From positions 315,383 through 379,382 of the forward strand of contig CAVWEZ010000007.1 in the NCBI GenBank assembly GCA_963754105.1: a stretch of 64,000 bases of DNA, in the 5' to 3' direction. A program made the translations under genes and the position numbers. The notes below the pieces were generated by a model. The model was not told where the DNA came from. It saw nothing but the letters and a program-made list of their open reading frames with translations, and searched no databases. The stretch comes from an uncultured Acidobacteriota bacterium (GTDB lineage Bacteria; Acidobacteriota; Terriglobia; Acidiferrales; UBA7541). Positions within the stretch are counted from its first letter, which is position 1. Every line of letters starts with the position of its first letter. Below, in pieces: positions 3,252 to 35,696 of the stretch.

Positions 3252-3521
3252 GCGGAGCCTTGGACGCCCCTGAGTTGTTTTTTTCATCGGATGGATAAGT
3301 TTTCTTTATGGGCTGCAATTGAGCTTCCTGACGATTTATTTACGTTTTCTTTATAACTCTCCTGCATTTCCGGCGGTTTGACGGGGGGGCTCAAATCCAC
3401 GCGATCAGTTCTTTCGATTGGACGTCGTGCCGATCCGCGATATCGTATTGTTGCAATCCGGACCTCCGTCCTAGTTGCGCCAGCTTTATAAATTAATTTA
3501 CTTCAAGGATGAAGGAGATTC

Positions 3522-4952
3522 ATGTCTAACGAACTTCGCGACTTTCTGGAAATTCCATATAGCGAACTGGAAGAACTGAATTTGAAGGCCAAGGAGCAGC
3601 GGCAAGGCCGCGTTCCAATGGAGGAACTGCAGGAGGAAAGAGTCAAGTATCTGACGGACGAGAAGCGAATCAAGGCTGTGACGGTGCTCTTCAGCGATCT
3701 GGAAGGCCGCCTCCACATGCTGGATTACGACAAGAAATTTCTGGTGAAGAGCTGGGACAACCTCACGTTCGACGGCTCGTCGATTCGAGGCTTCACGGCG
3801 CAGCGCGAGAGCGATTTGCGGCTGGGAATCGATTGGAGCGCTTTCTATTGGGCTCCGGCGGATTTTTTCGGCTCCGGCAAGGTGATGGTGTTCGGCGAGG
3901 TGATCGACAAGCAGGGCGGCCCTTACGCAGCCGACATGCGCGCCATGCTGAAAAGCTTTTCGGACGGCATGTACAAGAAAGATGGATACACGCTGAATGC
4001 CGCCAACGAAATCGAGGGATTTCTTTTTGCGGGCACGGACGCGGAGAAGCGCTATTACGAAACCGGCAAATTCGAATACGTGAACACCGGAGGTTACTAC
4101 CATTCGCTTCCCGGCGATCCACTCCGAACGTTCATCGACACAGTCGCGGAAGTGCAGCGCGCCATGGGTTTCCAAAACGAGAAGGATCACCCGGAGGTGG
4201 CGCCGTCGCAATTCGAAATCAATTACGGCTACGGGGAAGTGGTGGCCGCAGCGGACCAAATCCAACTTTACAAACTGATCTGCCGCCAGGTAGCGACCAA
4301 ATCCGGCATGACGGCGTCGTTTTTGCCGAAGCCGGTAGTGGGAGTTAACGGCAGCGGAATGCACACGAACGTTTCCATCAGCAAGAACGGGACGAATCTT
4401 TTCTGGGATCCGAAAGGGCAGGAAAAGCTTTCGAGCTGCGGATGGGAGTTCATCGACCGCATCCTGACACACGGGAACGACATCTGCCTGGCGCTGAATC
4501 CCAGCGTGAATGCGTACCGCCGCCTCGACCCGCATTTCGAAGCGCCGAATCAGATCAAAGCGTCGGCCGTGGACCGCGGCTCGATGATTCGCGTGCCGAT
4601 CGGCAACTCGAAGAGCATGCGGGTGGAGGTTCGCTCAGTCGCTCCGGATGCGAACCCGTACCTGGTGATGCTCAGCGTATTCAAGACCGGGATTGAAGGC
4701 GATACCGCTGACTTGGAAAATCTGCGGCAGGCCGAGCGCTATCTGCCGGACAACATCTACACGGCGATCGATGATTTCCGGGCAGCCGAGTGGACGACAA
4801 AGCTGCTTGGGGAGGATGTGAAGGGCCGTTATGCCGACCTGAAGCAGGCCTCCGCGGACCGTTGCGCTCGCTTGCTGGGCACGGTGGTGAAAGGACCGGA
4901 GGTGCAGTTCCACCACGAGGTCTACAACCAATATTTGTGGAACCAATTTTAG
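3522..4952 (+). CDS. Glutamine synthetase family protein (second GS-like paralog)
   Basis: An intact 476-aa ORF with GGAG upstream of the ATG. GS catalytic-domain motifs are present (HPEVAPSQFEINY, VNGSGMHTNVS, NAYRRLDPHFEAPNQIKASAVDRGSMIRVP). Confidence 0.85.
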   Translation: MSNELRDFLEIPYSELEELNLKAKEQRQGRVPMEELQEERVKYLTDEKRIKAVTVLFSDLEGRLHMLDYDKKFLVKSWDNLTFDGSSIRGFTAQRESDLRLGIDWSAFYWAPADFFGSGKVMVFGEVIDKQGGPYAADMRAMLKSFSDGMYKKDGYTLNAANEIEGFLFAGTDAEKRYYETGKFEYVNTGGYYHSLPGDPLRTFIDTVAEVQRAMGFQNEKDHPEVAPSQFEINYGYGEVVAAADQIQLYKLICRQVATKSGMTASFLPKPVVGVNGSGMHTNVSISKNGTNLFWDPKGQEKLSSCGWEFIDRILTHGNDICLALNPSVNAYRRLDPHFEAPNQIKASAVDRGSMIRVPIGNSKSMRVEVRSVAPDANPYLVMLSVFKTGIEGDTADLENLRQAERYLPDNIYTAIDDFRAAEWTTKLLGEDVKGRYADLKQASADRCARLLGTVVKGPEVQFHHEVYNQYLWNQF

Positions 4953-18240: not shown

Positions 18241-18311
18241 CCCGAACCCGGTCGCGCCGTATGCGAACCGGGGTGAGGGATCTGCTTTTAGCTTTGCGCT
18301 TGAGGAACATC

Positions 18312-19461
18312 CTACTCTCCGCGCAAAATTACCGCGGGCTTCACCTTTCCCAGCGCGCGCAGCGGCAGCGCTCCGGCCATCCACGCGATCGCCATCATCA
18401 CAATCGTCAGCGGGAAAATTTCCCAGCGCGCTGCAATGGACGCGCCGAACACGCGCTCGCCCATCCAACGCGCCAGCGCGAAACCCGCCATGCAGCCGAC
18501 CAGCTCCGCCTGCCGCGCCGAGCACTCCCACTTCCGCCAGAAACAGCCCCACGATCCGCGCAATCGATCCGCCCAGCGCCTTCATCAAGCCCACATCTTC
18601 GCGCCGCTCCATCGCCAGCGCCGCCATCGTCGCCAGCACGCACAGCGCCGTCAGCGCCAGAATCAGCACGACGATGGACGCGATCAGCAACCGCGTGCGT
18701 TGCAGCAGATTGCCTTCGGCTTCCGTCACCTGCCGGATGGGACGCACATCATAGCCGGGAAGGGAACTCGCCAGTTGCGCCGCGTAGGCGCCGATACTCG
18801 CCGCCGTGCCGCTCACGCTCATCTGCACCAATTCGATTTGCCCGCGCGTCGCGGCAGTTGTTGCGCCGCGGAAAGGTCACGAAAACTTGATTGTCCTTCA
18901 GCGGCGCCGGCATCAACTGCGCCCGCGATTCCAAAGCTGGCGCTGCGGCCAAGATAGTTCAACGTGATCTTGTCGCCCGGAGCGAAATTAAACTGCCGGG
19001 CGGCGTTGCGGCCGACGATGCATGCGCGTCATCCTCGCGCGACGCGACCTTGCCCTTAATCTTCCAGGTAGGCTCGAGTTCGCAAGCTGGTTGAGCCAGG
19101 TGCCGGCCACCACCACAGGAGTATCTTGATTACGGGCCACGATATACAGAAACGGCGCGGCGCCCACCACTTCGGCGCGTGTGCAGTCGCTGGAGTTGAT
19201 TCAGCACGGCGCTTTGATCCATCAAATCTGGCGAGCCCGGCGTGCCCACGGCGCCACGCCCGCTCCCGACGTCCTGCCGCGGGAAATAACCAGATTCGCG
19301 CCCAACAGCGCGAAACTCGTGCGCCAGCTTTTCCCGCATGTCGAACTGAAGATTCAGCAGCCCGAGATCACCGTCGCGCCACTGATCACTGCCACAAGTG
19401 CCACGGCAAGGCGGCCGCGATTGCCGCGGAGCAATTTCCAGAGCATGCGGCCGAACATCAT
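18312..19461 (-). pseudogene. ABC transporter permease, FtsX/MacB-type; several frame interruptions
   Basis: The start MMFGRMLWKLLRGNRGRLAVALVAVISGATVISG overlaps the stop of the upstream permease (ATGA). The C-terminal FtsX domain pieces are ...MKALGGSIARIVGLFLAEVGVLG and ...FALARWMGERVFGASIAARWEIFPLTIVMMAIAW...LRALGKVKPAVILRGE. Confidence 0.75.
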
Positions 19462-20753
19462 TCGCCCCGCAGAATCGGCGCGGGATCGAAATGCGCCGCC
19501 CGCCGCAAGGGAATCAGACCGCCAGCCAGCGCCACGAGCGCCGCAAGCCCCAGAACAATCGGCAGAAGGACAATTCGTGGCGATGCCGGCGCACCGAAGA
19601 CACTTTCTCCGAGAAAACGCGCAAGACCGTGCCAAAGACAAACCCGATCGCTCCGCCGATGAGCGCCAGCATCAAGTGCTCCGCCAGAAATAGCGCCGAG
19701 ATGGACGTGTTCGTCGCGCCGATCGCTTTCATAATCCCGATCTCCGCGCGCCGCTCGAGCACGGCGGCGGCAGACGTGGCTGCCACGGCAAGCCCGCCGC
19801 CATCAGCGCGGCCAGCGTCACGATCCACAGCAGCGTGCTCACATGAGAAAGAATCTTGCCCTCGGTATCCGCCACCCGCCGGATCGCATGCACATCCGTT
19901 CCGGGCAGCACTGCTTCAATCTGGTAGCTGATCGACGAGATGTAGGGCGAGCAGAACCAGCGGTCGTATTCGGTTGGCGTCAGCGAATGCGGATCGCGGC
20001 CGCCAGCGCGTCGGCCGGCTTGGTCAGTGCGCTCACAAAAAGCTGCCGGAATTGCCCGGGATGACCAGAAAGATTTTGCGCGACCGAAAGCGGAACCAGC
20101 AGGGCATTGTCCTCGCGTCGCCCGTCGAAACGATGCCCGTCACGACCAGCGGGCGCGTAGAGCCCGAATTCTCCGTTCTCCGCCACATATATCGTTTTGC
20201 CGATCGTGAAAGTATCGAGGCTGCTTCGCAGCCAGCGCCTCGCCCACCACGGCTTCCTTGCGCCATCCTGAAACCAGCGGCCTTCGAATTTTCCACCAGG
20301 GATGCGTCGACGCTCAGCGCCCGTTTTGAACGCCGTTCCGTCCGGCACCGGAACATCGTGTTCGTACCATGTGCCGATCAAGTGCGTCAGTTTCGCCTGT
20401 GCGCCGCCGGGACCGACATACGCCGGCACGTCGAGGAATGGCGTGAAACCCAGAATATTGTGGCGCCAGAAAATCGTTTTAAGCTTGCCCAGATCCGCTT
20501 CTCGCAGGTAGGCGCCTTCGTCCACCGGACGATAATCCACGCCGCCGATTTCGACGGGCAGCGTATCCGACTGCGGCGTCACCATCAGGTTCGCGCCCAG
20601 GCTGCGAAATTCGCGCGCCATGCGGTCGCCCACTTCGAGCGCGATCGTCAGCGTGGCGGTCGCTACGGCCATGCCCACCACCAGCGCCGCCGCGGTCAAA
20701 ATTTTGCGGCGCGGATTGCGAACGAACGATTCGCCCACGAGGCGTGCGAACAT
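19458..20753 (-). pseudogene. ABC transporter permease, FtsX/MacB-type; several frame interruptions
   Basis: The N-terminus MFARLVGESFVRNPRRKILTAAALVVGMAVATATL is followed by a large periplasmic region. FtsX pieces are spread over three frames (ERRAEIGIMKAIGATNTSISALFLAEHLMLALIGGAIGFVFG..., ...LIPLRRAAHFDPAPILRGE). Confidence 0.75.
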
Positions 20754-20755
20754 TT

Positions 20756-21289
20756 TTAAGAGTGAATCATCGCGTTAGCGTTGGCCAGCGCCGAAAGATC
20801 GACGATCACTTCTCCTCCCGCCACTCGTCGATTTCACCGGAATCGGATTGCATCCGCCGCGATCGCCGATCGACGGAATGTAAATCGAGGCGCCGCAATT
20901 CCGGCAGATGACGTTTTGGCCCTCCTGCCGGTAGCCGCGCGGCCGCAAATCTCGCAGGCGTCGAGCGCGGTGGCGTAGTCGCCGTTGGTCTGGTGAATCA
21001 CCATGAAGCGAATCACGGTGCCGTTCACGTCGGCGGTATAAAAGTGCAGGCTGAATCGGTCAGTTCGGAGAGCGGAATGCGGACTTCGTCGTTTTGCGCG
21101 CGTCGAGCGATCTGCGCGGGCTGCCGGAGCGTTCATCGCGTGCGTGTACGCAAATTCCGCCGCCAGCGACACGACCACCAGCACGCACAGGATTGCCGCG
21201 GCAAAGCTCCATCGCCGCTGCCGGCGAAATTCCCATTCGCGCAAGCGGCGTTCGGCGGGATTGGCGGTAGCGTTCTCGGCCGGCTGGCG
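20756..21289 (-). pseudogene. DUF2318-type Cys-rich membrane protein (FTR1-associated); at least 3 frame interruptions, and the upstream boundary is not resolvable
   Basis: Pieces in three frames read WSFAAAILCVLVVVSLAAEF (TM), VRIPLSELTD, LHFYTADVNGTVIRFMVIHQTNGDYATALDACEICG, YRQEGQNVICRNCGASIYIPSIGDRGGCNPIP and GGEVIVDLSALANANAMIHS-stop. No clean stop or start separates it from FTR1. Confidence 0.6.
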
Positions 21290-22022
21290 CGCGCCGAACC
21301 ATTCGCGCAGCACCACCAGCGCGGCCACTCCCAGAATCACCACAAAAAAGAAAACCTCGTTGCGCACGATCGGCCCGACAGTGGCCATCTCGGTTTTGCT
21401 GGACCATATCCACATGCGCCTCGCTCAACTCGTGCACGCCTGTGAGCGCCAGTTGGAACGCGACCACCATAAGGATGATGCTTGTCGCACGAAAGAAGCG
21501 ATGCAGCGGAATCCGCAGTGTTCCCTGGAAGAAGAAAACGCCCACGCCGACCGCAATCGCGATGCCCAGCAGCGTCCCAATCCACACTTGCACGCCTGCG
21601 GTGGAAAGCTCCACTGCCCGCAGGATCAGCACGAGCTCCGCACCCTCGCGCACCACCATGAAGAAAACAAATGCGCCGATAGCCCATCCCGCCGCGCTCG
21701 TGGACCGCTGCGCGTAAGCCTCCACGCGCGCTTCGATGTTTTTTCGCAAGCTCCGCGCCACCCGGTTCATCCATATAATCATGGTGACCACCAGCGCGGA
21801 GGCCAGCAGCATCAGCAGGCCTTCGAAACCGTCTTCGCTAATTGCCCAGCGCTGCAGGAGCACGGCGGCGGCGACGCTGGCCGCGCACGCCAGGATAACT
21901 CCTCCCCATGCATAGCTTTTCAACGCGCGGCGGCCGCTGCGGTCCAAATATACGAGTACAATACCGACGATGAGCGCGGCCTCGACGCCTTCCCGAAGGG
22001 CTACAAGGAGAGCTGGAATCAT
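21290..22022 (-). pseudogene. FTR1 family iron permease (EfeU-like); frame interrupted near 21412-21418, and the 3' boundary is approximate
   Basis: MIPALLVALREGVEAALIVGIVL...VVREGAELVLIL contains two REGxE motifs. After HELSEAH the protein continues in another frame (WSSKTEMATVGPIVRNEVFFFVVILGVAALVVL). Confidence 0.8.
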
Positions 22023-22166
22023 AGAATTTCCAGTTGTAAACGAGTTGCAACTGGCATTTCCAGTCTAGCGAGGTACTGGCCCAAATTCAAGCTCTTTGAA
22101 CAACATCGTTCTGCTTTACAGCCGCACGGTTTACGTTCCTTTGTACAATGGCATCACACATTAGCC

Positions 22167-25100
22167 ATGGCCGATCAGAATTATCCGGACAAGGTCCGAG
22201 GGCCCCGTCGCGTTGCAATCTCGAGCGGCTTCTGCCTGCTGCTTTTTGCCGGCACTTTGGCGATCTGCGCGACCGCAGCTCAGGCACCCTCGCAATCGCC
22301 AGGGTGTTAAGCCCACCGTCTCGCCGGTAGTATCCAAGGCCGATGCGAAAAAAGCGAAAGCGGCCTATGAAGACGGCGTGAGGGCGGAGCAGCGGCTGGA
22401 TTGGGACGCCGCTTTTGCCGCCTACTCCGACGCGGCGCACTGGGATCCAAGCGACCGGGAATATCTGCTGCGTCTCGCAATTGCGAAGAGCCGAATCGTT
22501 CAAAAAAAGGTCGACGCCGCCGAGCGCGATGCTGTCTCAGGGCAGCTGGACGCAGCCCGCAGGGAACTGCTCGACGCCAGTTCCATCGATCCCTCGAATA
22601 AGACAGTGCAGGAACGGATCGTGGAACTGACGGCCGCGGAGCCGGAGCGAGTTCGACAAATCGATGAGCCGGAAATTACGGGCGAGCCGGATCTCGAATA
22701 CCGGCCTGGCAAACAGAGCTTCGACTATCGCGGCGATACGCAGGGAGCGTACCAACAGTTGGCCTCGCAATTTGGTGTGGAAGCGGCATTCGACGTCGAT
22801 CTCCATGCTCGAACGGTCCACTTCCAGGTAACAGACATGGATTTTCCGACCGCCGCGCGCGTGCTGGGCGACTTGACCGCAACATTTTGGCGGCCGCTCA
22901 CGTCGCGTCTCTTTTTCGTCACTGACAATACGCCGCAAAAACGAAAAGACTACGACGCCTCGGTGGTCCGCACCGTTTTGCTTCCGTCTTCGGAAACGCC
23001 CGAGCAGATGACGGAAATGCTGCGAATGGTTCGCGATATCACCGGCATCACCCGCTCTGACCTCGATACGAACAGCCGCACTATCACTTTGCGCGCGTCT
23101 CCGCAAGCGATTGCGGTGGCCTCGGATTTGATTGGCAATCTCGAGCAGCCCACGGGAGAAGTGGTTTTAGAAATTGAAGTTCTCGAGGTGGACCGCAACC
23201 GCGCGCGGCAGCTCGGAATTACTCCGCCTCAAACCGCAACGGTTTATTCGCTCAGCTCGCAGCAAATCCAGGAGGCGGAACAATCCGCCCAAGGTCTCAT
23301 TGACGTGATCAACCAAATCTTCGGGACCTCATCGGTTCCGCCGGTCATTGCTTTCGGCGGAGGCAAGACGACGTTTCTCGCCACCCTTCCCGGTGCGGCG
23401 GCCAATTTTGCCGAGATGCTCTCGCTCGTCCGGCAGGGCCGGCGCATTTTGCTCCGTGCGCAGGACGGCCAGCCCGCGACGTTTTTTGTGGGCGACCGCG
23501 TTCCGGTGTCCCTTACGACTTTTGCTCCGAGTATCACATCGGCGGGAATCAGCAGCGTCAGCGCTGCCGCGGCAACGGTGGCTCCGCTGACCAACTATGC
23601 GGCGGGGAATTCACCTGCTTTCGTGGCCACAGCCGACCTGCGCGGCACTAGTATCAACGACCTGATCGTCGCGAATTCGGCCGACAATACCATGTCGGTG
23701 TTGCTTGGAAATGGCGACGGGACATTCGGCGCACAGACGACGTTCCCGACGGGGACGACTCCGGTTTGGATTGCGAGCGGGCAATTCAATAACGGCGCGG
23801 CTGCTGCAAATAGCGATAACATTCTGGATTTGGCGGTCGCCAACAAGGCCGCAAATACGGTTTCGATTCTTGCTCGGGAAAGGCGACGGCACGTTCCAGC
23901 CCAAAGTGGACATACCCACGGGCAGAGGGCCTGTTTCAGTGATCGCCACGGATTTTCACGATCTCAGCGGGACGGGATTTCTCGATCTTGCGGTCGCCAA
24001 CCAGGACGACAACTCGATCTCTATCTTTCAGGGGAATGGCGACGGTACTTTCCAGGCGCCGGCGTTGATCCAGCTTCCCGCCGGTTTTTCACCCGCCGCT
24101 CTTGCGGCTGCGGATCTGAACGGCGACGGCCACGCGGACCTGGTCGTCGCGGACCAAGGCCACAACACCATCTCCGTCTTCCTAGGTAACGGGGACGGAA
24201 CTTTTCAGAATCGCACCGACTATCCACCGGAGACGCGTCCCGTATCAGTGGCGTTTGGAGACTTTAACGCCGATGGCGCCGAGGACATCGCCGTAGCGAA
24301 CCTCGGCGGAAACTCCGTGACGGTCTACTACAATCAAATCAGCACCACCAACTCGGCGCCCCTTGGCAAATTCGTAGCGGGTGCCACCCGGGATTTCGCC
24401 GCGGGCAACGGTCCAACCGCGATCGCCGTGGCGGATTACAATGCGGACGGTGCTCCCGATATCACGGTTTCCGACACAACGGACAATGCTATAACGGTCC
24501 TTCTAAACGCCGGCAGTGAGCTTTTCACGGCGCTTCCGGAGATTCCGGTGGGCACTGCTCCCGCTTCCATCGCCACGGCTGATTTCAATGGCGACGGCCT
24601 ACCAGATGCGGCCACGGCAGACAACGGGTCCGCCCAGGCCACCGTAATCATCAATTCCGCCAGCCTTTTTGGCAGCGGTGTAGGGCTCAATTCTTTCGGC
24701 ACGCCGTATCCGGGAGTGCAGTACCTCGACATCGGTCTGAAGGTGAAGGCCACGCCGCGAATCCATCCCAACGACGACGTTACTCTTGATCTGAACTTCA
24801 ATATCAGCAGCCTGAGCGGCCAGAGCATCAATGCAATCCCCGTCATCAGCAATGACGAAGTGGATCAGACAGTTCGGGTGAAGCCCAACGAAACGGCGGC
24901 GCTGGCAGGGTTCCTCGAAACGCAGCTCAGCAACGCGATCACCGGCAACCCAGGAATCGCCGACATTCCGGGAATCGGCCTTCTCGATCAGAACCAAAAC
25001 GCGCAGCAGGAGGAGACCGAGTTGCTCATCCTGGTCACGCCGCGGATGGTGCGGCTCGCCCGACGCAAGGACCATACGATTTACGCGGGGCAGGGGTCGG

Positions 25101-25234
25101 CGGAGAGTGAAGGCGCTGGAGCGGTGGGAAACACGTTGCCGCCACTGCCACCACAGCAAGTTCCGGAGCCGGGGCGAGAGCCGCCGCAAAGCCTGCCGAC
25201 GCAGCGGGGCATACGGTCTATGCCGGACCAATAG
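22167..25234 (+). pseudogene. Secretin (GspD/PilQ superfamily) with a seven-repeat FG-GAP/VCBS propeller inserted in the secretin domain; frame interrupted near 22300-22310 and 23866-23872
   Basis: The signal peptide (MADQNYPDKVRGPRRVAISSGFCLLLFAGTLAICATAAQA) lies in the tail of the 21144-22310 frame, and the rest lies in ORFs 22213-24189 and 23705-25234. Secretin blocks are VVLEIEVLEVDRNRARQLGI, LLRAQDGQPATFFVGDRVPV, GVQYLDIGLKVKATPRIHPNDDVTLDLNFNISSL and IADIPGIGLL...ETELLILVTPRMV. Seven GNGDGTF/DxNxDG repeats occupy about 23584-24658. Confidence 0.8.
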
Positions 25235-25268
25235 AGATTCGGCGCGGCGCCTGGAACGGCGGAAATAG

Positions 25269-26243
25269 CTATTGTGTTGCGTCGAGCACGACCACCGGCT
25301 GATACGTCCGCGGCACCACAGGCTCGGCAATGGCGATCAATTGTCCTTGCTGACTGAAGACCCGCAGCCGCGCGGGCTTCCATTCCCCGGAATCAAGCTC
25401 GGCCGGCGCGCCTTGCGCCGCTGTCGCATGGCCGGGCTGAATTTGCGCGAGCGGCAAATTGAACTTCGCTCCGTGCCGCACGCGCTTCTCGATGATCGGG
25501 CAGCACGGTGGCACGCGGCAATTCGGGCAGCAGATCTTCGAGCCGGATCACGCGCGCGGCGATCTTCCCCGATTTTGCGTCTTCGGCAAGTTCGGCCAGC
25601 GGCACGGCGTGGTCGAGCGTGAATTCTCCCACCGCGGTGCGGATTATTTCCGCCAGGTGCGCGCCCGAGCCGTGCAGCTTCCCCAGATCGTGCGCCAGCG
25701 AACGAATGTACGTGCCCGCGCCGCACTCCACCGAGAAGCGCGCCAGCGCGCCTTCGATGCCGGTTAGCCTGAATTCGTACACTTCCACGTCCATCGGTTC
25801 GAGCTTCACGGGCTTGTTTTTGCGCGCGAGTTCGTGCGCCGGCCGCCCGTGAATTTTCTTTGCCGAAAAGGACGGCGGCGTCTGCTGGATTTTCCCTATG
25901 AATTGCGCGGCCAGCCCCTGAATTTGCGCCGCATCGAGCGTCGGTGCCGCATCCGGCCCTGCGCTTCGCCATCAGCGTCATAGGTGTCCGTGGCGAAGCC
26001 GAAGCGCACGGCGCAGGTGTAGCGTTTACGGCGTCCGGTATAGAAGCGCGCGAGCCGCGTGGCTCTGCCGAGCGCGAGCACCAGCACGCCCGTGGCCAGC
26101 GGGTCGAGCGTGCCAAGATGTCCGATTTGGCGGAAGCCGACGAGGCGGCGCACGGTTTCGACCACGTCGTGCGACGTCTTTCCCCGCGGCTTATCGACTA
26201 CGAGGATTCCGTCGAGTGGAGGCGGTTGCGGGATTCGGGGCAT
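25269..26243 (-). pseudogene. truB: tRNA pseudouridine(55) synthase; frame interrupted near 25955-25965 and 25495-25505
   Basis: DGILVVDKPRGKTSHDVV...GHLGTLDPLATGVLVLALGRATR, then GKIQQTPPSFSAKKIHGRPAHELAR...ECGAGTYIRSLAHDLG, then the C-terminal PUA-like part in a third frame. Confidence 0.9.
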
Positions 26244-26303
26244 TTTGGCTTTGTTCGCAGCGCCGGATTCGAGCCGGCAAAACTGCGGGTCGACTTCCGC
26301 CCG

Positions 26304-26669
26304 CTACGATTTCTCCGGCTGATGCACTTTTCGCAGCAGCTCGTCGATATGCTGCGCCGTACTCCTCGGATTCATCGACGAGGAAAATGATCTCGGGAGC
26401 CCTCCGCAGCCGGAGCCGCTCGACCAATTCGTGGCGGACAAAACCCGCGGCGGCTTTCAAGCCCGCGAGCGCTCTTCGCGTTCTCTCCGCATCGTCTCCG
26501 GGACTGCACGAAAACGCGCACGGCGCGCATGCCGGGCGCCGACGCGAACCTCCGTGACGCTGAGCGGCACCGCCAAGCGCGGATCTTTCAACTCACCGGC
26601 CAGCATCAGGCCAACTTCATTGCGGATTTCTTCCGCAATTCGTTCCGCGCGAAATCCGCCGACGGTCAT
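26304..26669 (-). pseudogene. rbfA: Ribosome-binding factor A; at least 2 frame interruptions
   Basis: MTVGGFRAERIAEEIRNEVGLMLAGELKDPRL...VTEVRV, then LKAAAGFVRHELVERLRLRRAPEIIFLVDESEEY, then HIDELLRKVHQPEKS-stop in a third frame. The start overlaps the DUF503 stop (ATGA). Confidence 0.8.
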
Positions 26670-26960
26670 TCCCCATCCTCGAAATATTCGATTTGGCTTG
26701 AAACCAGATCGCGCCCCAGGATGCGCTCCGATTCGGCGGCGATCGCTTGAACGCGATTCCTCGAGATGTTTGCCGTCGCCCGAAATGGTGACCACGCCCA
26801 CGCGCGACCGCTGCCAAACTTCTTGATGATCCAGCTCGGAGACGGCCACGTTGAAGTGGGCGCGCAATCGGTCTTTCAGGCTGCGAAGCACCTGCCGCTT
26901 GTCTTTGAGCGACTGCGCGTCAGAAATGTGAATTTCCAGTGTGAGGAGGCCGACCGGCAT
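26666..26960 (-). pseudogene. DUF503 (YlxP-like) protein; frame interrupted
   Basis: MPVGLLTLEIHISDAQSLKDKRQVLRSLKDRLRAHFNVAVSELDHQEVWQRSRVGVVTIS, with the C-terminus ...IAAESERILGRDLVSSQIEYFEDGE-stop in another frame. It occupies the classical position between infB and rbfA. Confidence 0.7.
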
Positions 26961-27075
26961 TTCCGTTCATCCCGAGGCAGTAAAGCCGCCCCTTTTCGGA
27001 GCCAAAACCGGAGCGAGCCGAGGTACAGGCTCCGGTCCGCACCGAAATTCGCGCGTTGCGCCGGCGCGCGCGCTG

Positions 27076-29907
27076 CTAGCCGCGCCTGGCTTCTGCCACC
27101 GCTTGCGGCCGTGCCGCTCGATCGGGCGGAGCTTCGACCGGCGCGACCTTCTCGATCTTGAAGCATTCCAGGGAGTCGCCAACTTTGACGTCGTTGAAAT
27201 TGGAGATGCCTGCGCCGCACTCGAAGCCGGCGCGTACTTCGCTCGCGTCTTCCTTGAATCGCCGCAGGGAACTGATTTTGCCCGTGTAGATCACCACGTT
27301 GTCGCGAAGCACGCGCACGTCCGCATCGCGCTTCAAGATTCCCTCCTGGACGGAGCATCCCGCGATCATGCCCACGCCCTTCACGCGGAAGGTGTCGCGA
27401 ACTTCGGCGCGGCCCAGGTAGGTTTCCTTGATGAGCGGCGCCAGCAGTCCGGAGACGGCCTTCTTCAGCTCATCAATCAGCTCATAGATAATCGTGTGGA
27501 GGCGGATGTCCACACCCTCGCGCTGCGCCAGATCGGATGCCTTGCGTTCGGGCCTTACGTTGAACGCCACTATAATCGCATTGGAAGCCGAGGCGAGCAG
27601 CACGTCGCGTTCGGTCACTGCGCCCACGCTCGCCTGAATCACTTTCAGCCGCACCTGATCGTTCGAAAGTCCCGGCAACAGTTCGTTGAGGACTTCCACC
27701 GAACCTTGGACGTCTGCTTTCACGACTACGGGCAATTCTTTCATTTCGCCGGCTCGAAGTTGTTCGTGCAGTTGATCGAGTGTGAGGCGGCCGGAGGGAC
27801 CGGTCTTCGCCAGAGCCGCCTCGCGCTGCTTTCCTTGACGGTACTCGACGATGTGGCGGGCCTTGGCTTCGTCCGCCACCTGGAATTGGTCCCCCGCTTC
27901 GGGCACGCCTTGCAATCCGAGAACTTCCACGGGAGTGGACGGCTCGGCCTTCTGAATGGCCTGGCCGCGATCGTCAAACATGGCGCGAACTTTGCCGTAC
28001 ACCGCGCCGACGATGAAAACATCGCCGACGCGCAGGGTTCCGTTCTGTACCAGCACGGTAGCCACAGGTCCGCGGCCCTTATCCATGCGGGATTCGAGAA
28101 CGGTGCCGCTGCCAGGAGCGTCGGGATCGGCCTTGAGTTCGCGCAAATCGCTGACGAGCAGAATCATCTCGAGCAAGCGCGGCAGATTTTTCTTGGCTTT
28201 AGCGGAGACTTCCACCATCACCGTGTCGCCGCCCCATTCCTCGGGCATCAAGCCGCGGTCGGCAAGCTGGCGCTTCACGCGCTCGGGCAGCGCTTCGGGC
28301 TTGTCGATTTTATTTATGGCGACAACGATGGGTACGTTGGCGGCTTTGGCGTGCGCAATAGCTTCTTCCGTCTGCGGCATCACGCCATCGTCCGCGGCTA
28401 CGACCAGCACGACGATGTCTGTAACCTTTGCGCCGCGCGCGCGCATTCGCGTGAACGCTTCGTGGCCCGGCGTGTCGATAAAAACAATCCGCCGCTGGTC
28501 CACGTGCGCTTCATATGCACCTATATGCTGGGTGATTCCGCCTGCTTCGCCCGCCGCTACTTCGGTTTCGCGGATGGCATCAAGCAAGCTGGTCTTGCCG
28601 TGGTCCACGTGGCCCATCACGGTGACTACCGGAGCGCGCGGTAGTTGGTTTCCACTGCGCTCTTCTTTGATTTTTTCTTCCTGGACCACCTGCTCTTCAA
28701 AGGTCACAACTTGGACGATTCCATTGAACGCTTCCGCCAAGCTGGTCGCGGTAGGAACGTCGAGCGCCTGGTTGATGCTGGCGAAAACTCCGCGGTCGAG
28801 CAAGGTTTTCAGCAAGTCCTTGGCGCGAATATCCATCTTCTCGGCAAGCTCGCGTACGGTGATGCCTTCCGTAACCGTGACGTTCCGCGGCTCGCGTTGC
28901 ACCGGGGCCACAGGTTCAGCGTGAGCCGCGCGTCCTGCTCCCACACCAGCGCGCGTCCGAACCGGGTGCAGCCTGCGCTCACCTTCGGCATAGCGTTTTT
29001 CGATCGTCGGACGTCCGCGTGAAGCGGGCGGTTTTCGCTGCGTATAGGGGCTTTCCTGGCTCTGCCTTGGGCAGGCCTGAAACGCCCGTGGCGCCGGGAC
29101 GCTGACTTCCAAGAGGCCCCTGACCGGGTCGTCCTGTCCCAGGGCGCTGCGGAAATCTTGATGGCGGTGCTCCGCCAGGTCTCGGTGGGCCGCTCGGTCT
29201 GGACTGACCTGGTGCGGCCGCAGGACGCATTCCTTGAGGAGCGCCCGGCCGACTTTGGCCGAAACCTTGACCAGGACGCGCCGGGAATCGACCAGGCTGT
29301 CCTGCTTGCGGCGGGCCTGCGGGCCTCGGCGCACCCGAGGCGCCTGTGGCCGGAGCTGAAGAAGCCGCTGCCGGGCGCATCGCCCCGGGGGCAGACGGTT
29401 GTCCCGTGGCCGTTCTTGGAGGGGACGGGCGGCTTGGTGGCACAGTCCGTGGCGCAGTTGGCGAAGCCGAAGGTGCGGCGGGTCGAGTCGCAGCCGCAGT
29501 TGCCGTGGCGGCCGGCGAAACAGTCGGACGCACGGGCGCAGCAGCGGAGCCGCTGCAGGCGGCGCGGTGCTAGCCGCAGGCGATGTTTTTGCCGGAGCCG
29601 CTGGCGAACCTGGAGCCGCGGATGCGCCGGTTGGTGCCAGGGCAGGTCCAGCGGGCTTCGCGGGTGCCGCGGCAGGCCGGGCGACCTTTGACTTTGCGGC
29701 TGTCTTGGCCGCCTCCGCCGCCGCTTCCGCGTCCGCTAGCTCACGAAAATGCTTTCGCGCCAGCTCGGCATGCTCAATGTCAAGTGAGCTCGAATGGGTC
29801 TTTTTCTCCGCGACGCCGATCTCGGGGAGAAAGTCGATCAGCACCTTGGCTTTGATCTCAAGCTCTCGCGCCAGTTCGTTGATGCGGATTTGGTTGGAAT
29901 CTGACAT
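27076..29907 (-). CDS. infB: Translation initiation factor IF-2; the ORF is open, but about 29045-29550 appears to be read in the wrong frame
   Basis: The N-terminus is [27 protein letters not shown]. The G domain has [24 protein letters not shown] and NKID, and the C-terminal domains are intact. The Arg-rich middle of the 943-aa ORF is replaced in the -1 frame (ORF 28979-29533) by a Pro/Ala/Gly-rich linker typical of IF-2. Confidence 0.93.
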
Positions 29908-29977
29908 CAGCCTCTATTCTTTGAACATGTCGTCCAAAACTCTTTTTGCCCGGCGCCGATTCCGCCGGGAGCCGGTG

Positions 29978-31504
29978 CTATTCCTCGGGAGTTTCTCGCT
30001 TCTCGGCGCTTTCGTCTACCGTGGAGGCTGCTTCCTTATCCGCCGGAGTGGTTTCTTCAGCCTCTTCAGACGGTTCCTCCGTGCTCGGCGCCGGATCGGC
30101 TTGCGCTTCTTCGGTCAAGTCGGCCGTTCCCGCCTCGTCCAGCGCCTCCGTTGCCTCCGGCGTTTCAACACTTGCTTCTGGCATTGCTTCTGCCGCCGCT
30201 TCGTCTTCGGTGGAGGGTTCAATCGGAGCGATCGGCTGCGCTTCAAGGGCCTCGAAGTACGCCGCGACCGATTGGTGAATCTTTTCCACCATTTTCTCGC
30301 CGATGCCAGGAATTTCTACTAGTTGCTCCGGGGTCATATCGGCGAGTTTCTCGATCGAAGTGATTCCCGCGGCTTCGAGCTTCTCAATTGTTTTCGGGCC
30401 GACGCCCTGAGTTCGGCAAGCGCGGTGCCAGGAGCGGTGAGCGCGGCCATCTGCGCTTCGATTTCGCGCCGCTTTTCTTCCTCGCTCTTGATATCCACAT
30501 TCCAGCCGATCAGCTTGCTGGCGAGGCGGACGTTCTGCCCTTTCTTGCCGATGGCCAGCGACAATTGTGTATCCTCGACGATCACTTCGAGGCGCTTTTC
30601 CTCCGGGTCCACGATCTGCACGCGAGTAACTTTCGCGGGGCTGAGGGCCTTTTGGGCGAAGGCGACTGTTTCTTCGCTGTACGGAATGATGTCAATCTTT
30701 TCGCCGCGAAGCTCGCGGATGATCGATTGGACGCGCATGCCCTTCATTCCAACGCACGCGCCCACGGGGTCCACATCTTTGTCCCGGCTTTCGACTGCGA
30801 TTTTTGTGCGCTCGCCCGCTTCGCGCGCCACCGCGCGAATTTGTACGGTGCCGTCATAAATTTCCGGCACTTCCATTTCGAAGAGCCGCTGCACCAGGGC
30901 GGGATCGGCGCGGGAAACGATCACCTGCGGTCCTTTTGCAGCGCGCTCGACCGCTCGAATCGTCACGCGCAGCCGGTCGCCGACATTGTAGGCCTCAAGG
31001 CGCGATTGTTCGCGCTTCGGCAGTCGCGCTTCGGTGCGGCCGAGGTCCACGATCATGTCCGGGCCTTCCATGCGCTTCACCACGCTATTGATCAGCTCGC
31101 CCACGCGCGTGTGAAATTCGTTGTAGATCGTATCACGCTCGGCTTCGCGCACTTTTTGCAGGATCACCTGCTTGGCGGTCTGCGCGGCGATTCTTCCCGA
31201 GCACGTCGGTCGGCTTTGGTTGCGTGATTTCTCCGCCGACTTCGATTTCTGGATTTCGCTTGCGCGCGTCCGTCAGGGAAATTTCGCGCACAGGATCTGC
31301 TACTTCGTCCACGACCATGTGAACGGAAAATACGTCTATCTGGCCGCTTTCGGGGTTGAATTTCGAGCGCAGCTCTTCCTCAGTGCGGTAGTACTTGCGC
31401 GCCGCCACGACCATCGCGTCCTCGATGGCCGCAACGATGATCTCCGGTTCAATATGCTTCTCCCGGCTGATCTGCTCGATTGTCTGGTATAGCAGACTCG
31501 CCAT
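29978..31504 (-). pseudogene. nusA: Transcription termination/antitermination factor NusA; frame interrupted near 31195 and 30410-30420
   Basis: The N-terminal domain (MASLLYQTIEQISREKHIEPEIIVAAIEDAMVVAARKYY), S1/KH domains (PVGACVGMKGMRVQSIIRELRGEKIDII, LSLAIGKKGQNVRLASKLIGWNVDI) and the HhH C-terminus (MTPEQLVEIPGIGEKMVEKI) lie in three frames. Confidence 0.9.
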
Positions 31505-31529
31505 CTGTCTTATTTCTCCCCCCGATGCC

Positions 31530-32016
31530 CTATGTCCCGATCACAATCTCCACGACCAAATTCGCCTTCCGAATCTGGCTATACGGCACGGCAACCTCGC
31601 GATCGCGAACCGCCAGCTTCACAACGCCATTGGCGTAGCCAGCCAGCCGACCTTCCAGATATTTCTGGTTCTCGACCGGCTCATTCAGCCAGATTTTCGC
31701 CAGCCGTCCGGCAAACCGCTCATAATCCGCGGGCTTGATCAGCTTCCGATCCAGCCCCGGTGAACTCATCTCCAGTACATAACTGCCGGTCCCGGAATCA
31801 GATCTTCCACATCCAAAATAACGCTCAACTGCTCGCTCACACGCTGGCAGTCGTTGTGTGCTCCACGGCCCCGTCGGGTTGCTCCGGATCGGGCAGGCGG
31901 TCGATATAGACCCGCAGAAACCGCTGCTTGCCGACCTTCCACTCGAGGTCGAAGATTTCAAGACCCTCGGAATGGGCCACCCGCTCCGCCGCCTCTCGAA
32001 TCCTTTCTAGGTCCAT
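31530..32016 (-). pseudogene. rimP: Ribosome maturation factor RimP; frame interrupted near 31858 and 31795
   Basis: MDLERIREAAERVAHSEGLEIFDLEWKVGKQRFLRVYID..., then NDCQRVSEQLSVILDVEDLIPG, then YVLEMSSPGLDRKLIKPADYERFAGRLAKI... in successive frames, immediately upstream of nusA. Confidence 0.8.
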
Positions 32017-32281
32017 TCTCTTCTAATCGCGGCAGTTACCCCTGACCGGAGGCACCGCGTCCCGTTTCATGCGGCCAACAAAAAAGTGGGCTCGCGCCCA
32101 CTGGTTTGTGCGACCTATCTGGAAGCAAATTTAGTATAAGCTTCGTTACCCCTGAAACGCAAGCCACCGCCCCCAGACTTGATTTCGATACGTTTTTGCA
32201 CGTGTTTTACCCGAGGGATAATCGCGCTGTATTCTGCTACCATGCGCCGTCTGGAAGTGCAGACACTTTTGAACGGAGCCG

Positions 32282-32558
32282 ATGGCGATGCAAACGCCGG
32301 ATCCAGACGCCAAAATCGAGTTAAACCAGGTTGTCCAGAAGTATTTGGGAGCGGCAGGCAGCTACGGGCGGACGGTGCCGCTGGATTCCCTGGGGCTTTC
32401 GGCCAAGGAAGTCGAGGATGTGTTCGGCACATTCGATGGAGGACTACCACATCAGCCGCTACTTCCACTTTGAGTGCGCTTCCGGCGCGAATTTCCAGAT
32501 CAACGGCTTTCCGCAGACACACGTTTCGATTGACGCGGAAATCCAAAGCATCCTGTAG
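32282..32558 (+). pseudogene. Hypothetical small protein (about 90 aa); frame interrupted near 32430
   Basis: GGAG lies 6 nt before the ATG. MAMQTPDPDAKIELNQVVQKYLG...KEVEDVFGTFD continues in the +1 frame as MEDYHISRYFHFECASGANFQINGFPQTHVSIDAEIQSIL. No domain recognised. Confidence 0.3.
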
Positions 32559-32653
32559 TCATTTTTTCTGCGACGGTTGGTGGCGGATTCCGGCGAGAGC
32601 CCTCGGATCAGAAACTCGAGCGATCCTTAAGCCCTCGCCGAATCTTCGCATGG

Positions 32654-33142
32654 CTAGCCGGCTGTCTGTGCGCGCTGTTGCGTCTTCATTGCTTCCTGCA
32701 TCCGCTTGCTCATCTCTTCCGGTGAAACATCCTCTTTGTGAGTGGCCAGCGACCAGGAATGGCCGAACGGATCGGTGAGCCTGCCGTAACGATCGCCCCA
32801 AAGTTGGTCAGCGAGCGGTTGCGCTTCCTTGGCGCCCGCAGACAATGCTTTCTTGAAGGTCGAGTCAACGTCCTCTAGATACAAAAAGATACTGACCGTG
32901 GAGCTGCCAAGGGATTGGGGAGAGCGGACCCCACTGTTCGCCTGCGAAGGGCCCAGCATAATGATCGAGTCGCCTATCTTGATTTCGGCATGAGAAATCT
33001 TACCGTCGGGCCCGGGCATGCGCATGATTTCCTTGGCTCCAAATGCCTGCTGATAGAACTCAATTGCGCGCGCTCCGTCGTCAACAGCAAGATATGGTGT
33101 GACGGTGTGAAAGCCTTCTGGAACTGCGTTTACTCTTGACAT
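32654..33142 (-). CDS. VOC (glyoxalase/PhnB-like) family protein
   Basis: An intact 162-aa ORF reading VTPYLAVDDGARAIEFYQQAFGAKE...HAEIKIGDSIIML...WGDRYGRLTDPFGHSWSLATH. Confidence 0.8.
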   Translation of the reverse strand: MSRVNAVPEGFHTVTPYLAVDDGARAIEFYQQAFGAKEIMRMPGPDGKISHAEIKIGDSIIMLGPSQANSGVRSPQSLGSSTVSIFLYLEDVDSTFKKALSAGAKEAQPLADQLWGDRYGRLTDPFGHSWSLATHKEDVSPEEMSKRMQEAMKTQQRAQTAG

Positions 33143-33254
33143 GGTTTCTCCTTTTCGGGTCGTCCCGGTCCTAAGCGTGGGACGTGAATGGGTGGTGACA
33201 GGCTGGGGCGAATCGGCTGGATAAGAAACTACTTACCGCAACGGCGGATGAAAA

Positions 33255-34957
33255 TCAAATTGAGGGATCGACGTCCACGGGAATGTCGGAGCCTTTGGCC
33301 AGGGCGGCGGAGAGTTCCGGGGGCATAACTGCGTACTTTGTGAACCACTTCTCGGTGCGCGCGCGGTCTCCTGTGGCTTCTTGCTCGAGTAATTCCTTAG
33401 CGAGCGATGCGATTGCTGCGGGCATTTTCTTGAAGTCGATTTCGTAGAGGCCGGTGGAAGGGTTTCGGCGGATCGCGCCCTGTTCCGTGAGGTAGCTCAG
33501 CTCCATCATGGCGCCTGCGCCGTGCGCCTCGGCGATTCCGAAGCGGATGGTGCGAAAAGTTTCGCCGAGAAAGGAAGCGTAAATTTCATTTAGCTTGTCC
33601 TTGGAATCACGCCGTGGTCCACCAGCCACTTCACGCAGAGCAGGCCGGTGATGTCCGCTTTGGATTCTTCGAGTGCGGAATATTGCGGGCCGATTGCTTC
33701 GCGAATGTCGAGTTTGCCATTCGAGCCGTGCACGTATGCGGGCCGAGGCCGTGGGAGATTTCGTGGAGGATGACGAAGTCGAGCGTGCCTTCGCCGGTGA
33801 CCATCGTGGCCTGATCGGCGCGCATGAGGCGCTCGGCGAGCGGCAGAATGATGTAGTTCACGCGCGCATCCAGGAAATTCTTCCAGAAGATTTTCTTCGA
33901 GCCTTTTTCCTCGTGGATGCGCGGATCGTTCGGCAGATTATCGGCCACGGCCTGGTAGCCGTGCAGCAGGTCGCCCGCGCGATAAATGGCGTCCACCACT
34001 TCCATGGGCGATTGCTTGCCGCGCTTCGGAAGGCAAATCCTCGGCGCGAGCGGCAGCGATTCCTGAAGATCGGGAACGTATTTCTGGAAGAGCGGCGAGC
34101 TTTTTGCTTTCTGCGTCGTTGCGGATCATGATCCGACGCGCCGTAGGAGGTTTTCACGCCGAGCAGACCGTCGAGATAGGTTTCATACGGCGCGAAGATG
34201 ACGTCGAATTTCGGATTTTCGAGATCGAGCCAGGCGATGTCGCTCGCGAAGTAATCGTCGGTGAGCAGAGCGTCGGCGCGCAGGCGCAGGAAATTCGCGA
34301 ACGCCGGATCGTCGCTCAGCTCGCGCGGCTTCGCGGAGATCCTTGGCCATGGGAACGAGGAACTCGCGGAAGGCGACGTGGTAGGGAACGGCTTCGAGAG
34401 CGTCGCCGTTGCGGCCTGACTATCGTTTGACCATTGTAAAGAGCCGGCTTTTTGGTCGGGATGCGCGGCGACGTAGGCGTCGAATTTCGCGCTGCGTAAA
34501 ATCCTTCGGGATAAAAATCCGCGGCCGGGCGGCATCGGCTGCGTGCCGACGAAGGGCTTGTTGTCGTCGATCAGATCGTAGCGGCTGCCGTTGATTTTGA
34601 GATATCGGCGCAGCATCTGGTCCTGCGGATTCTTGCTATTTGCGAGCGAGAGATAGAGTTTCAGTCCTTCGGGATCGCTCTGGCGCCAGTAGATGCAATC
34701 GAGCAGGCCGGCGGCGTCGACGAGCTTATCGACCATTTTCTTTTCGCGCGGGGTGAGATCCTTGGAGTTGAAATGGTATATTGATGGGCTTGAATTTTGC
34801 AAACTGCTGGGCAAGATCCGGCGCGATAACCAGTTTGGATGAGGCGGACTGGGAAGCAGATGATCCTGGAGCTGATATCGTCCACGCCGCTCCGATGACG
34901 ATCAAGCCCGAAAGTATCAGGGAGAAAATTGCGGGATCGGAGAACGCCCCCTCGCAA
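33255..34957 (-). pseudogene. Secreted zinc metallopeptidase-like protein (HExxH; DPP3/M49-related family, tentative); at least 4 frame interruptions
   Basis: A TTG start with a signal-like N-terminus (MRGGVLRSRNF / SLILSGLIVIGAAWT). Pieces read FNSKDLTPREKKMVDKLVDAAGLLDCIYWRQSD, ...DFVILHEISHGLGPH, and ...FGIAEAHGAGAMMELSYLTEQGAI... Confidence 0.55.
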
Positions 34958-35200
34958 AAAGTTCAGAGTAGAATCTACCTCGACCCTTTGTTTTCTGTAA
35001 GTTGCGTCACGTTTTATTCGTCTCTCAGTTGCGAGTAGAGATGAGCGATGCGCGGCAGCCGGCGGCTCGGCCAGGGTTCGTTCGCCCGCCGTCGGTCCAT
35101 GTCTTGGTCGACTTCCTTAGTATTTCGCACGCGCCTATATTAGAGCAGGGGGCGGCTAGCGCAAGCACAAACTCCTGTGGACTTATTTCTCTGATTGACG

Positions 35201-35696
35201 ATGGCCAAGAAAAGCGCGGGACTCTGATGTATCGAGTGCGGGATGGAAAGTTAGAGGTTCTGCTGGTGCATCTGGGCGGGCCGTTTTCGGGCGAAAAAGG
35301 ATGCCGGGGCCTGGTTTGTGCCCAAGGGAGAAGTGGAGCCTGGCGAAGACGAACTTGGCGCCGCCAAGCGCGAATTTAGAGAAGAAACCGGTTTCGATCC
35401 GGGCGATGAAGTGCAACCTCTCGGAAGCGTAAAGCACAAGAGCGGGAAAACAGTTACCGCAGTGGGCGTTCGAGGGCGATTGCAATCCTGCCGCTTTGAA
35501 AAGCAATACCTTCACAATCGAGTGGCCGCCGCGCTCAGGGAAGCAGCGGGAATTTCCCGAGATTGATCGAGCCGCGTTCTTCACCGTCGAAACGGCTCGC
35601 GCCAAAATTCACCCTGCCGAACTTGATCTTGTTGAACGACTGCATTCGCTTTGGGAGGGGCTCCAACATCTGGACCTTAGAAACAGGGATGCATGA
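35201..35696 (+). pseudogene. NUDIX hydrolase (COG4119-like); at least 3 frame interruptions
   Basis: MAKKSAGL / MYRVRDGKLEVLLVHLGGPF / VPKGEVEPGEDELGAAKREFREETG (Nudix box) / TFTIEWPPRSGKQREFPEIDRAAFFTVETARAKIHPAELDLVERL across frames. Confidence 0.75.

Follow-up and report, generated by a model that had tools for sequence, protein, structure and literature searches.

Secretins form the outer membrane portals of type II and type III secretion systems (T2SS and T3SS), type IV pili (T4P), Tad pili, and filamentous phage. The channel is closed, in all solved secretins that we know of, by the tips of a short hairpin, GATE1. This hairpin is made of inner-barrel strands 4 and 5 and is kinked at InvG N386 (equivalent to G453 of Vibrio cholerae GspD and G458 of PulD) and at a conserved glycine (G407); its tips form the barrier across a lumen of ~75 Å, and on opening, the tip moves ~40 Å towards the lip (PMC6155069). 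Here we describe a gene from an uncultured member of the Acidobacteriota, located at positions 22167 to 25234 on the plus strand of a 64,000-nucleotide stretch of contig CAVWEZ010000007.1 (the window). The gene encodes a genuine secretin of a previously uncharacterized lineage, which we refer to as TPR-secretins, and its secretin domain is interrupted at GATE1 by a complete seven-bladed FG-GAP β-propeller. We regard this architecture and the site of the insertion as very nearly certain.

The identity of the host domain was established from both sides of the insertion. Pfam Secretin (PF00263) matched at 96.3 bits against a gathering cutoff of 27.5 bits (E value of 2e-27), with profile positions 46 to 169 falling on amino acids (aa) 844 to 962. 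A construct from which the insert had been deleted aligned without a break to residues 292 to 571 of Pseudomonas aeruginosa XcpQ (5WLN) and likewise to other GspD, PilQ, and RcpA structures, and relatives lacking the propeller gave one uninterrupted Pfam Secretin match covering profile positions 4 to 169. Because the insert-deleted alignment is unbroken and the propeller-less relatives match in one piece, the two flanks must be halves of a single secretin domain, as the initial annotation of this DNA had proposed. The AlphaFold2 (AF2) model also matched the secretins PilQ (6W6M) and InvG (5TCR) across the insertion in Foldseek comparisons. The protein scored 93.3 bits against the GspD model TIGR02517, for which the equivalog cutoff is 351.35, and 71.9 bits against the PilQ model TIGR02515, with a cutoff of 284.35; since every score was far under its cutoff, the secretin is not an equivalog of GspD, PilQ, MshL, or SctC.

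The junction VGDRVPVSLTTFAPS / FGTPYPGVQYLDIGLKV aligned with the GspD/XcpQ pattern VGQ(D/N)VP...17-20 aa...(V/I)G(I/V)xLKV. The glycine of FFVGDRVP (G442) falls on residue 453 of GspD in the 5WQ8 numbering, and both it and the second hinge glycine (G856, the glycine of Y-x-D-x-G) are invariant in 57 homologues. This alignment to GspD/XcpQ and the retention of both hinge glycines place the propeller at the tip of the GATE1 hairpin, between G442 and G856. The span from hinge to hinge is 414 aa, compared with about 21 to 28 aa in characterized secretins and about 28 aa in GspD itself. The "short loop" that was first thought to be interrupted is therefore correct as a site and can be specified as the tip of GATE1, and the bounds first given for the insert (about 23510 to 24712) shift slightly, to 23506 to 24721 with both linkers included.

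The inserted domain was recognized independently by profile, model, and fold comparison. In the window protein, FG-GAP_3 matched six stretches with an E value of 3e-49 (165.9 bits against a threshold of 26.9) and FG-GAP matched with an E value of 3.5e-15 (56 bits against 22.1). AF2 placed 28 strands, or seven blades of four, over aa 474 to 830 (23587 to 24658) with a predicted local distance difference test score (pLDDT) above 90, so that the complete propeller claimed for the interior of the secretin domain was upheld. Foldseek matched the model with a probability of 1.0 to the seven-bladed propellers of ITFG2, LGI1 EPTP, integrin alphaIIb, and the lectin AAL2, with target-normalized TM scores of 0.66 to 0.78 for ITFG2 and LGI1 EPTP and of ~0.5 for integrin alphaIIb and AAL2; a sequence search of the propeller against the PDB gave no match at E values up to 0.001. 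Four D-x-N-x-D-G-x-x-D motifs, starting at aa 649, 698, 756, and 805 (24113 to 24139, 24260 to 24286, 24434 to 24460, and 24581 to 24607), form predicted Ca2+ loops that are assigned to blades 4 to 7 by the order of strands in the AF2 model. By these profile and fold matches the propeller is assigned to the FG-GAP/integrin-alpha class, and it is predicted to bind Ca2+. Mean identity of the homologues to the closest database protein (P0001) was 64% in the propeller and 70 to 74% in the barrel halves, but only 36% in linker 1 and 57% in linker 2. The propeller is thus under purifying selection, as its identity is near that of the barrel while the linkers vary far more.

The remaining anatomy was drawn from an AF2 monomer model of P0001 computed with 56 homologues (57 sequences), with window coordinates checked by translation. 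All features lie on the plus strand. The protein begins with a signal peptide (aa 1 to 40, ending ...ATAAQA before PSQ; 22167 to 22286), recognized from the translation and from homologue N termini, with the cleavage site judged by eye. Export by the Tat pathway was considered because of paired arginines in this peptide and was dropped, the twin arginines not being conserved among homologues. A signal-peptide cysteine is not conserved in homologues either, so the protein is probably not a lipoprotein, and that assignment was set aside. A TPR-like helical domain follows (aa 57 to 157; 22336 to 22638), with AF2 helices over aa 60 to 156 at a pLDDT of ~90; Pfam TPR_2 scored above its cutoff in the equivalent region of relatives such as P0168. 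A single secretin N-domain had been suggested downstream of it. An N-domain is indeed present, but the model resolves two α/β domains, one N0-like and one N3-like. The first (aa 181 to 255; 22708 to 22932) has the order β-α-β-β-α-β-β at a pLDDT of ~90, and its N0/STN label comes from topology alone, there being no Pfam match for these residues. The second (aa 262 to 328; 22951 to 23151), with the order β-α-β-β-α, aligns to N3 of XcpQ and would be a ring-building domain of the Secretin_N type; Pfam Secretin_N reached 27.7 bits against a cutoff of 28.2 in the homologue P0147 and was not reported for the window protein.

Part 1 of the secretin domain (aa 329 to 446; 23152 to 23505) comprises the first strand of the outer barrel, the lip region, and the first GATE1 strand, which ends in ATFFVG(442)DRVP, and was modeled with moderate to low confidence. 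The propeller is suspended between two linkers that are predicted to be disordered and largely fall below a pLDDT of 50: a Ser/Ala/Thr-rich linker 1 of 27 aa (aa 447 to 473; 23506 to 23586) and a Gly/Ser-rich linker 2 of 21 aa (aa 831 to 851; 24659 to 24721). Part 2 of the secretin domain (aa 852 to 962; 24722 to 25054) then supplies the second GATE1 strand (YLDIG(856)LKV), GATE2, the IPGIG motif, and the final strands of the barrel. The C-terminal tail (aa 963 to 1021 in the window copy, 963 to 1046 in P0001; 25055 to 25234) is Pro/Gln rich, disordered (pLDDT below 50), and variable in homologues, and it contains no recognizable S-domain.

In the window the gene is spread over three overlapping plus-strand open reading frames (ORFs), at 21144 to 22310 (frame 0), 22213 to 24189 (frame 1), and 23705 to 25234 (frame 2). 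One-base deletions at about 22304 (CCAGG[G]TGTT) and about 23871 (ATTCT[T]GCTC) restore a single ORF of 1,021 aa, which agrees with the joined protein of about 1,020 aa that had been deduced from the ORFs and with P0001, an orthologue of 1,046 aa that is 95% identical and has an intact reading frame. A MAFFT alignment of the DNA with the locus of P0001 (L001) placed the extra bases of the window copy at exactly these positions (22301 to 22304 and 23869 to 23871) and showed a further, compensated -1/+1 pair at 24224/24237. Such differences are not confined to the secretin gene. Compared with L001, to which it is 92% identical, the window has 128 gap openings over 17 kb (for example, at 18300 to 35300), and frame-breaking indels affect nearly every window gene, FTR1 included: six each in nusA, rbfA, and rimP, two in truB, one in infB, and 13 in each of the MacB-like genes. 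The genomes of relatives are largely metagenome-assembled genomes from long reads, and the window itself appears to be an error-prone long-read assembly, so that any finding in it that is based on ORFs needs frame correction.

Two uncompensated frameshifts could also be the mark of a pseudogene that has decayed in the source organism, and a domain nested within a domain could result from misassembly or a chimeric join. However, the density of frameshifts in the secretin gene is no higher than in its essential neighbors, the 95%-identical orthologue is intact, and the identical join of propeller and secretin is found in more than 130 independently assembled homologues from both Illumina and long-read projects. 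We therefore reject these explanations as extremely improbable; the join is not chimeric. As indels break nearly all genes of the window and the orthologue is intact, we conclude from the alignments that both frameshifts are errors of sequencing or assembly and that the organism has a functional copy of the gene. At the other end of the gene, the window copy differs from L001 in that its stop codon (25234) lies ~100 nucleotides (nt) short of the truB-derived ORFs, while the secretin gene of L001 and the convergent truB overlap at their 3' ends by ~34 nt (L001 13108 to 13141). No other part of the protein is as poorly conserved as the C-terminal tail.

The same domain order recurs in other Acidobacteriota and defines a family that has emerged from a propeller-less TPR-secretin lineage. 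A database search returned 987 matches at E values below 1e-10; the top 120 were all intact, contained both FG-GAP and Secretin, and were mostly 1,000 to 1,120 aa long, and their public annotation is generic ("FG-GAP-like repeat-containing protein," "GspD/PulD," or "CpaC"). In a genome scan, relatives were encoded in 418 GTDB species genomes. The best 80 of these were almost all Acidobacteriota of the "Ca. Acidiferrales"/"Ca. Acidoferrales" (UBA7541), and their loci came from Danish, peat, palsa, and other soils. "Ca. Acidoferrales" is an abundant uncultured lineage of acid soils that has been proposed to cycle iron (PMC7980381). Because the gene occurs in hundreds of "Ca. Acidoferrales" species genomes, it probably belongs to the core cell envelope biology of this group.

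When the N-terminal 425 aa served as the query of a HMMER search of the full library, TPR-secretins of two size classes were recovered. Spacing between the GATE1 motifs was bimodal among 170 proteins: 19 to 46 aa in 29 of them (with a mode of 31 aa), 360 to 449 aa in 138, and 580 to 700 aa in the remaining 3. The proteins with short spacing are propeller-less TPR-secretins of ~600 aa with TPR matches. The three longest members nest extra arrays inside the propeller, consisting of Big_2 domains in P0154, He_PIG domains in P0147, and other repeats in P0122 that appear immunoglobulin (Ig)-like by eye and have no Pfam match. In these proteins, of up to 1,336 aa, the Ig-like arrays sit between propeller blades, giving a domain within a domain within a domain. 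Another homologue, P0207 (780 aa), contains four tandem modules of N0-like plus N3-like domains and no secretin barrel.

A neighbor-joining tree of the core, built with the insert removed, grouped all propeller forms in one clade, with the propeller-less P0168 as its sister. The tree indicates a single origin of the insertion, in a propeller-less lineage whose gene was at the same genomic position beforehand, and it indicates that propeller-less TPR-secretins represent the ancestral state. Since P0168 holds that position, the insertion must have happened in situ in a preexisting gene. One propeller-less protein of 621 aa (P0139; L084 2060 to 3925) is nested inside the propeller clade, which suggests a clean secondary loss of the propeller; this is a single sequence from a 4-kb contig.

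Gene order was compared in 83 loci. In L001 and in ~65 of 80 genome loci, an ABC gene, two MacB-like genes, and FTR1/FtrD are transcribed away from the secretin gene on its upstream side, and truB, rbfA, DUF503, infB, and nusA are transcribed towards it on the downstream side. The same order was found at P0147, which has 46% N-terminal identity, and at P0168, which has 37%. The housekeeping cluster truB-rbfA-infB-nusA is conserved beside the secretin as strongly as the FTR1 operon. In some lineages the secretin gene is still next to truB and has FemAB-like or ABC genes upstream, in others its neighbors are PolX, methyltransferase, and molybdopterin oxidoreductase genes, and more distant propeller-less members are surrounded by unrelated genes. 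The FTR1/FtrD-MacB-MacB-ABC operon is similar to the accessory genes of the Campylobacter P19/cFtr1 system, but no P19 gene adjoins it. Some relatives (L002 4898 to 5974 and L087 602 to 1702) have the ABC ATPase of this operon fused to a DtxR-type Fe_dep_repr_C domain.

Pfam scans of the window, including 20 further ORFs, detected no T2SS, T4P, T3SS, or Tad genes, and scans of the homologous loci detected no gsp, pil (pilMNOPQ), or other pilus or T2SS genes in the 10-kb flanks of relatives. The initial annotation was thus right that such genes are not adjacent, and its term "orphan" holds for the 64-kb window and for those 10-kb flanks. The rest of the window is of a housekeeping nature, with genes for glutamine synthetases, an Sdh/Frd flavoprotein, redoxins, TruA, Nramp, PhoH, MeaB, AHAS, PolX, a LytTR regulator, and an aminoacyl-tRNA synthetase. 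Two divergent glutamine synthetase genes lie at 1762 to 2910 (minus strand) and 3513 to 4949 (plus strand).

The two divergent transcription units appear to be regulated separately. A strongly conserved palindrome, CCAGTTGTAAAC-GA-GTTGCAACTGG (22030 to 22054), is located only a few bases before the start codon of FTR1/FtrD; its 8-mer AGTTGTAA was found in 48 of 69 loci, with near variants in most others. It resembles no regulator box known to us and is probably the operator of the iron uptake operon. On the secretin side, a conserved TGTACAAT box (22142 to 22149, plus strand) lies 17 nt upstream of the ATG as a putative -10 element; in most loci a conserved box CC(C/T)TGTA(C/G)AAT-n-GCATC stands 15 to 25 nt ahead of this ATG (window 22137 to 22166). 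This arrangement suggests that the secretin gene has a -10 element of its own and that its leader is very short and bears no obvious Shine-Dalgarno sequence. The palindrome is gone from the three FTR1-less loci L061, L063, and L068, which keep a similar box on the secretin side (TGTAGAAT). Because the housekeeping side is equally conserved, the linkage to FTR1 does not persist in several lineages, and the operator goes with FTR1 and not with the secretin, we read the adjacency of FTR1 as inherited synteny with independent regulation.

How could a secretin accommodate such an insertion? Like other secretins, the protein would assemble in the outer membrane as a double-walled barrel of 12 to 15 subunits, and 12 to 15 propellers of ~40 kDa would be too bulky for a lumen of ~75 Å, given that one seven-bladed propeller with a vWA domain, that of PilY1, is proposed to take up the outer chamber of PilQ (PMC11525922); the Ig-array variants, with an insert of roughly 65 to 75 kDa per subunit, would be harder still to fit. 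The canonical closed state should therefore be impossible, because the propellers cannot fit where the GATE1 tips converge. We hypothesize that the gate hairpins are held in an extended, open-like pose and that the propellers are pushed to one face of the barrel, most probably the cell surface, where they may form a multivalent Ca2+-dependent crown for ligand binding that possibly also caps the pore. The extracellular face is favored because an open GATE1 points to the lip, linkers of 21 to 27 aa could span ~60 to 90 Å, and the Big_2 and He_PIG arrays nested in the insert of some members are typical of surface adhesins. The corking of PilQ that is proposed for PilY1, from the outer chamber, points the same way. 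The secretin barrel would then be the conduit through which its own gate insertion is exported and also the anchor of that insertion. On this geometry we give a surface crown of propellers outside the barrel an even chance or somewhat less. A further step, which is possible but rather doubtful, would be a new, self-contained mode of surface display or autotransport in which a 12- to 15-fold crown of propellers is permanently displayed and a ligand-controlled cap replaces the gate.

Several points weigh against a crown at the surface. The oligomeric state, the pose of GATE1, and the face that bears the propellers are each inferred, and the AF2 monomer had a predicted TM score of 0.44, with the secretin part modeled at moderate to low confidence. 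A propeller that folded before membrane insertion would most simply stay in the periplasm; to reach the outside, it would have either to cross the nascent pore as a folded domain of 45 to 50 Å or to fold late. A pore of 75 Å that never closed would be hazardous unless capped, and Big_2 and He_PIG domains are not confined to surface proteins. A location in the periplasm must be taken seriously as an alternative, for it lets the propeller fold before insertion, which is simpler. Domains exported by Sec would fold in the periplasm before the barrel inserts, the simplest form of biogenesis that we can envisage, and the propellers would then hang below the gate into the vestibule and beyond, where they would act as a plug in place of the gate or bind a periplasmic or inner membrane partner. 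The vestibule would be short, as there are only two N-domains, and the reach of the linkers would suit this placement as well. However, 15 propellers and 30 linker chains would have to pass the N-domain rings and TPR domains and then sit beneath them, GATE1 of known secretins opens outwards, and the Ig-array variants look like surface adhesins; we consider a periplasmic plug or adaptor unlikely, if worth keeping in view.

A reading that is compatible with the surface crown is that the secretin belongs to a T4P or T2SS machine encoded elsewhere in the genome, with the TPR domain as a built-in cis-pilotin and the propellers as an exit collar or cork. TPR pilotins (PilF, PilW, and Tgl) serve T4P secretins, and the secretin core described here is closest to GspD/XcpQ and PilQ. 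There is a precedent for the cork in the seven-bladed propeller of PilY1, which has been proposed to close PilQ (PMC11525922). Against such a machine stand the 64-kb window and the 10-kb flanks of relatives, in which no pilus or T2SS genes were found, and profile scores far under the equivalog cutoffs (93 against 351 bits for GspD and 72 against 284 for PilQ). A passing pilus would also need all 12 to 15 tethered propellers to be clear of the lumen, and on balance we judge this association to be on the unlikely side too. The neighborhood raises a different possibility, namely, that the protein is the outer membrane partner of the divergent FTR1/FtrD, MacB-like, MacB-like, and ABC operon and admits or captures an iron species. 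The divergent arrangement is kept in most of the loci compared and at both P0147 and P0168, and the host order has been proposed to be an iron cycler (PMC7980381). Yet conservation is just as strong for the truB-rbfA-infB-nusA cluster on the opposite side, in several lineages unrelated genes replace the FTR1 operon beside the secretin, the neighbors of more distant family members are unrelated as well, and the palindromic operator adjoins FTR1 and disappears with it while the -10-like box of the secretin stays. A role in iron uptake is therefore improbable, more clearly so than a plug or a distant machine.

A literature search for secretins with an FG-GAP, VCBS, or propeller insertion found no description in the library searched, and the propeller-in-gate architecture thus appears not to have been described previously, in line with the initial annotation, to which no characterized secretin of this kind was known. 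With a folded domain of 40 kDa at the tip of the gate, and more in the Ig-array variants, members of this family must have another way of gating the barrel, or of using it, than other secretins. They offer a natural test of the size of cargo that a secretin gate tolerates and a possible scaffold for multivalent surface display. If a surface crown is indeed formed, it would constitute a multivalent adhesin or substrate trap on dominant bacteria of acid soils, extended in some lineages by Ig-domain stalks.

Among solved structures and NCBIfam models, the best matches to the protein are GspD, XcpQ, and PulD (5WLN, 5WQ7, 5WQ8, and 6HCG), with which it shares a complete secretin domain with all conserved blocks, a putative N3 domain ahead of it, and both hinge glycines of GATE1. 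It differs from them in lacking the N0-N1-N2-N3 series and the S-domain, in its N-terminal TPR domain, and in having no gsp genes nearby. The propeller-less TPR-secretins of the Acidobacteriota (P0168, P0196, and P0206; ~600 aa) are alike in the order of TPR, N0-like, N3-like, and secretin domains and in having no secretion system genes nearby, and P0168 occupies the same position between FTR1 and truB; in contrast, their GATE1 motifs are 19 to 46 aa apart with no inserted domain. The insertion itself has the seven four-stranded blades and FG-GAP repeats of integrin-alpha-type propellers such as those of ITFG2, integrin alphaIIb, and the fungal lectin AAL2. Integrin alpha subunits carry Ca2+ loops in blades 4 to 7, the same placement as that predicted here. 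Identity to these propellers is only 12 to 17%, however, and the domain is inserted in the hairpin of a membrane barrel rather than forming a free-standing ectodomain.

Functional analogies may be drawn with two further systems. PilY1 likewise brings a seven-bladed Ca2+-binding propeller to the gate and outer chamber of a secretin, although we take its propeller to be of a family different from FG-GAP, and the likeness is one of function only. The propeller of PilY1, together with its vWA domain, has been put forward as a cork that occupies the chamber over the gate of PilQ and as an adhesin as well (PMC11525922). PilY1 is a separate protein, present in one copy per machine and carried on the pilus tip, whereas the propeller described here is fused into the gate hairpin of every subunit. 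Type V secretion (autotransporters and intimin-invasin) relies on an unrelated fold, a monomeric barrel of 12 to 16 strands that depends on the β-barrel assembly machinery, and its passenger is terminal rather than placed in a gate hairpin. The analogy that we infer is that in both cases an outer membrane β-barrel would export and anchor a passenger or adhesin covalently linked to it, with export by way of a hairpin loop.

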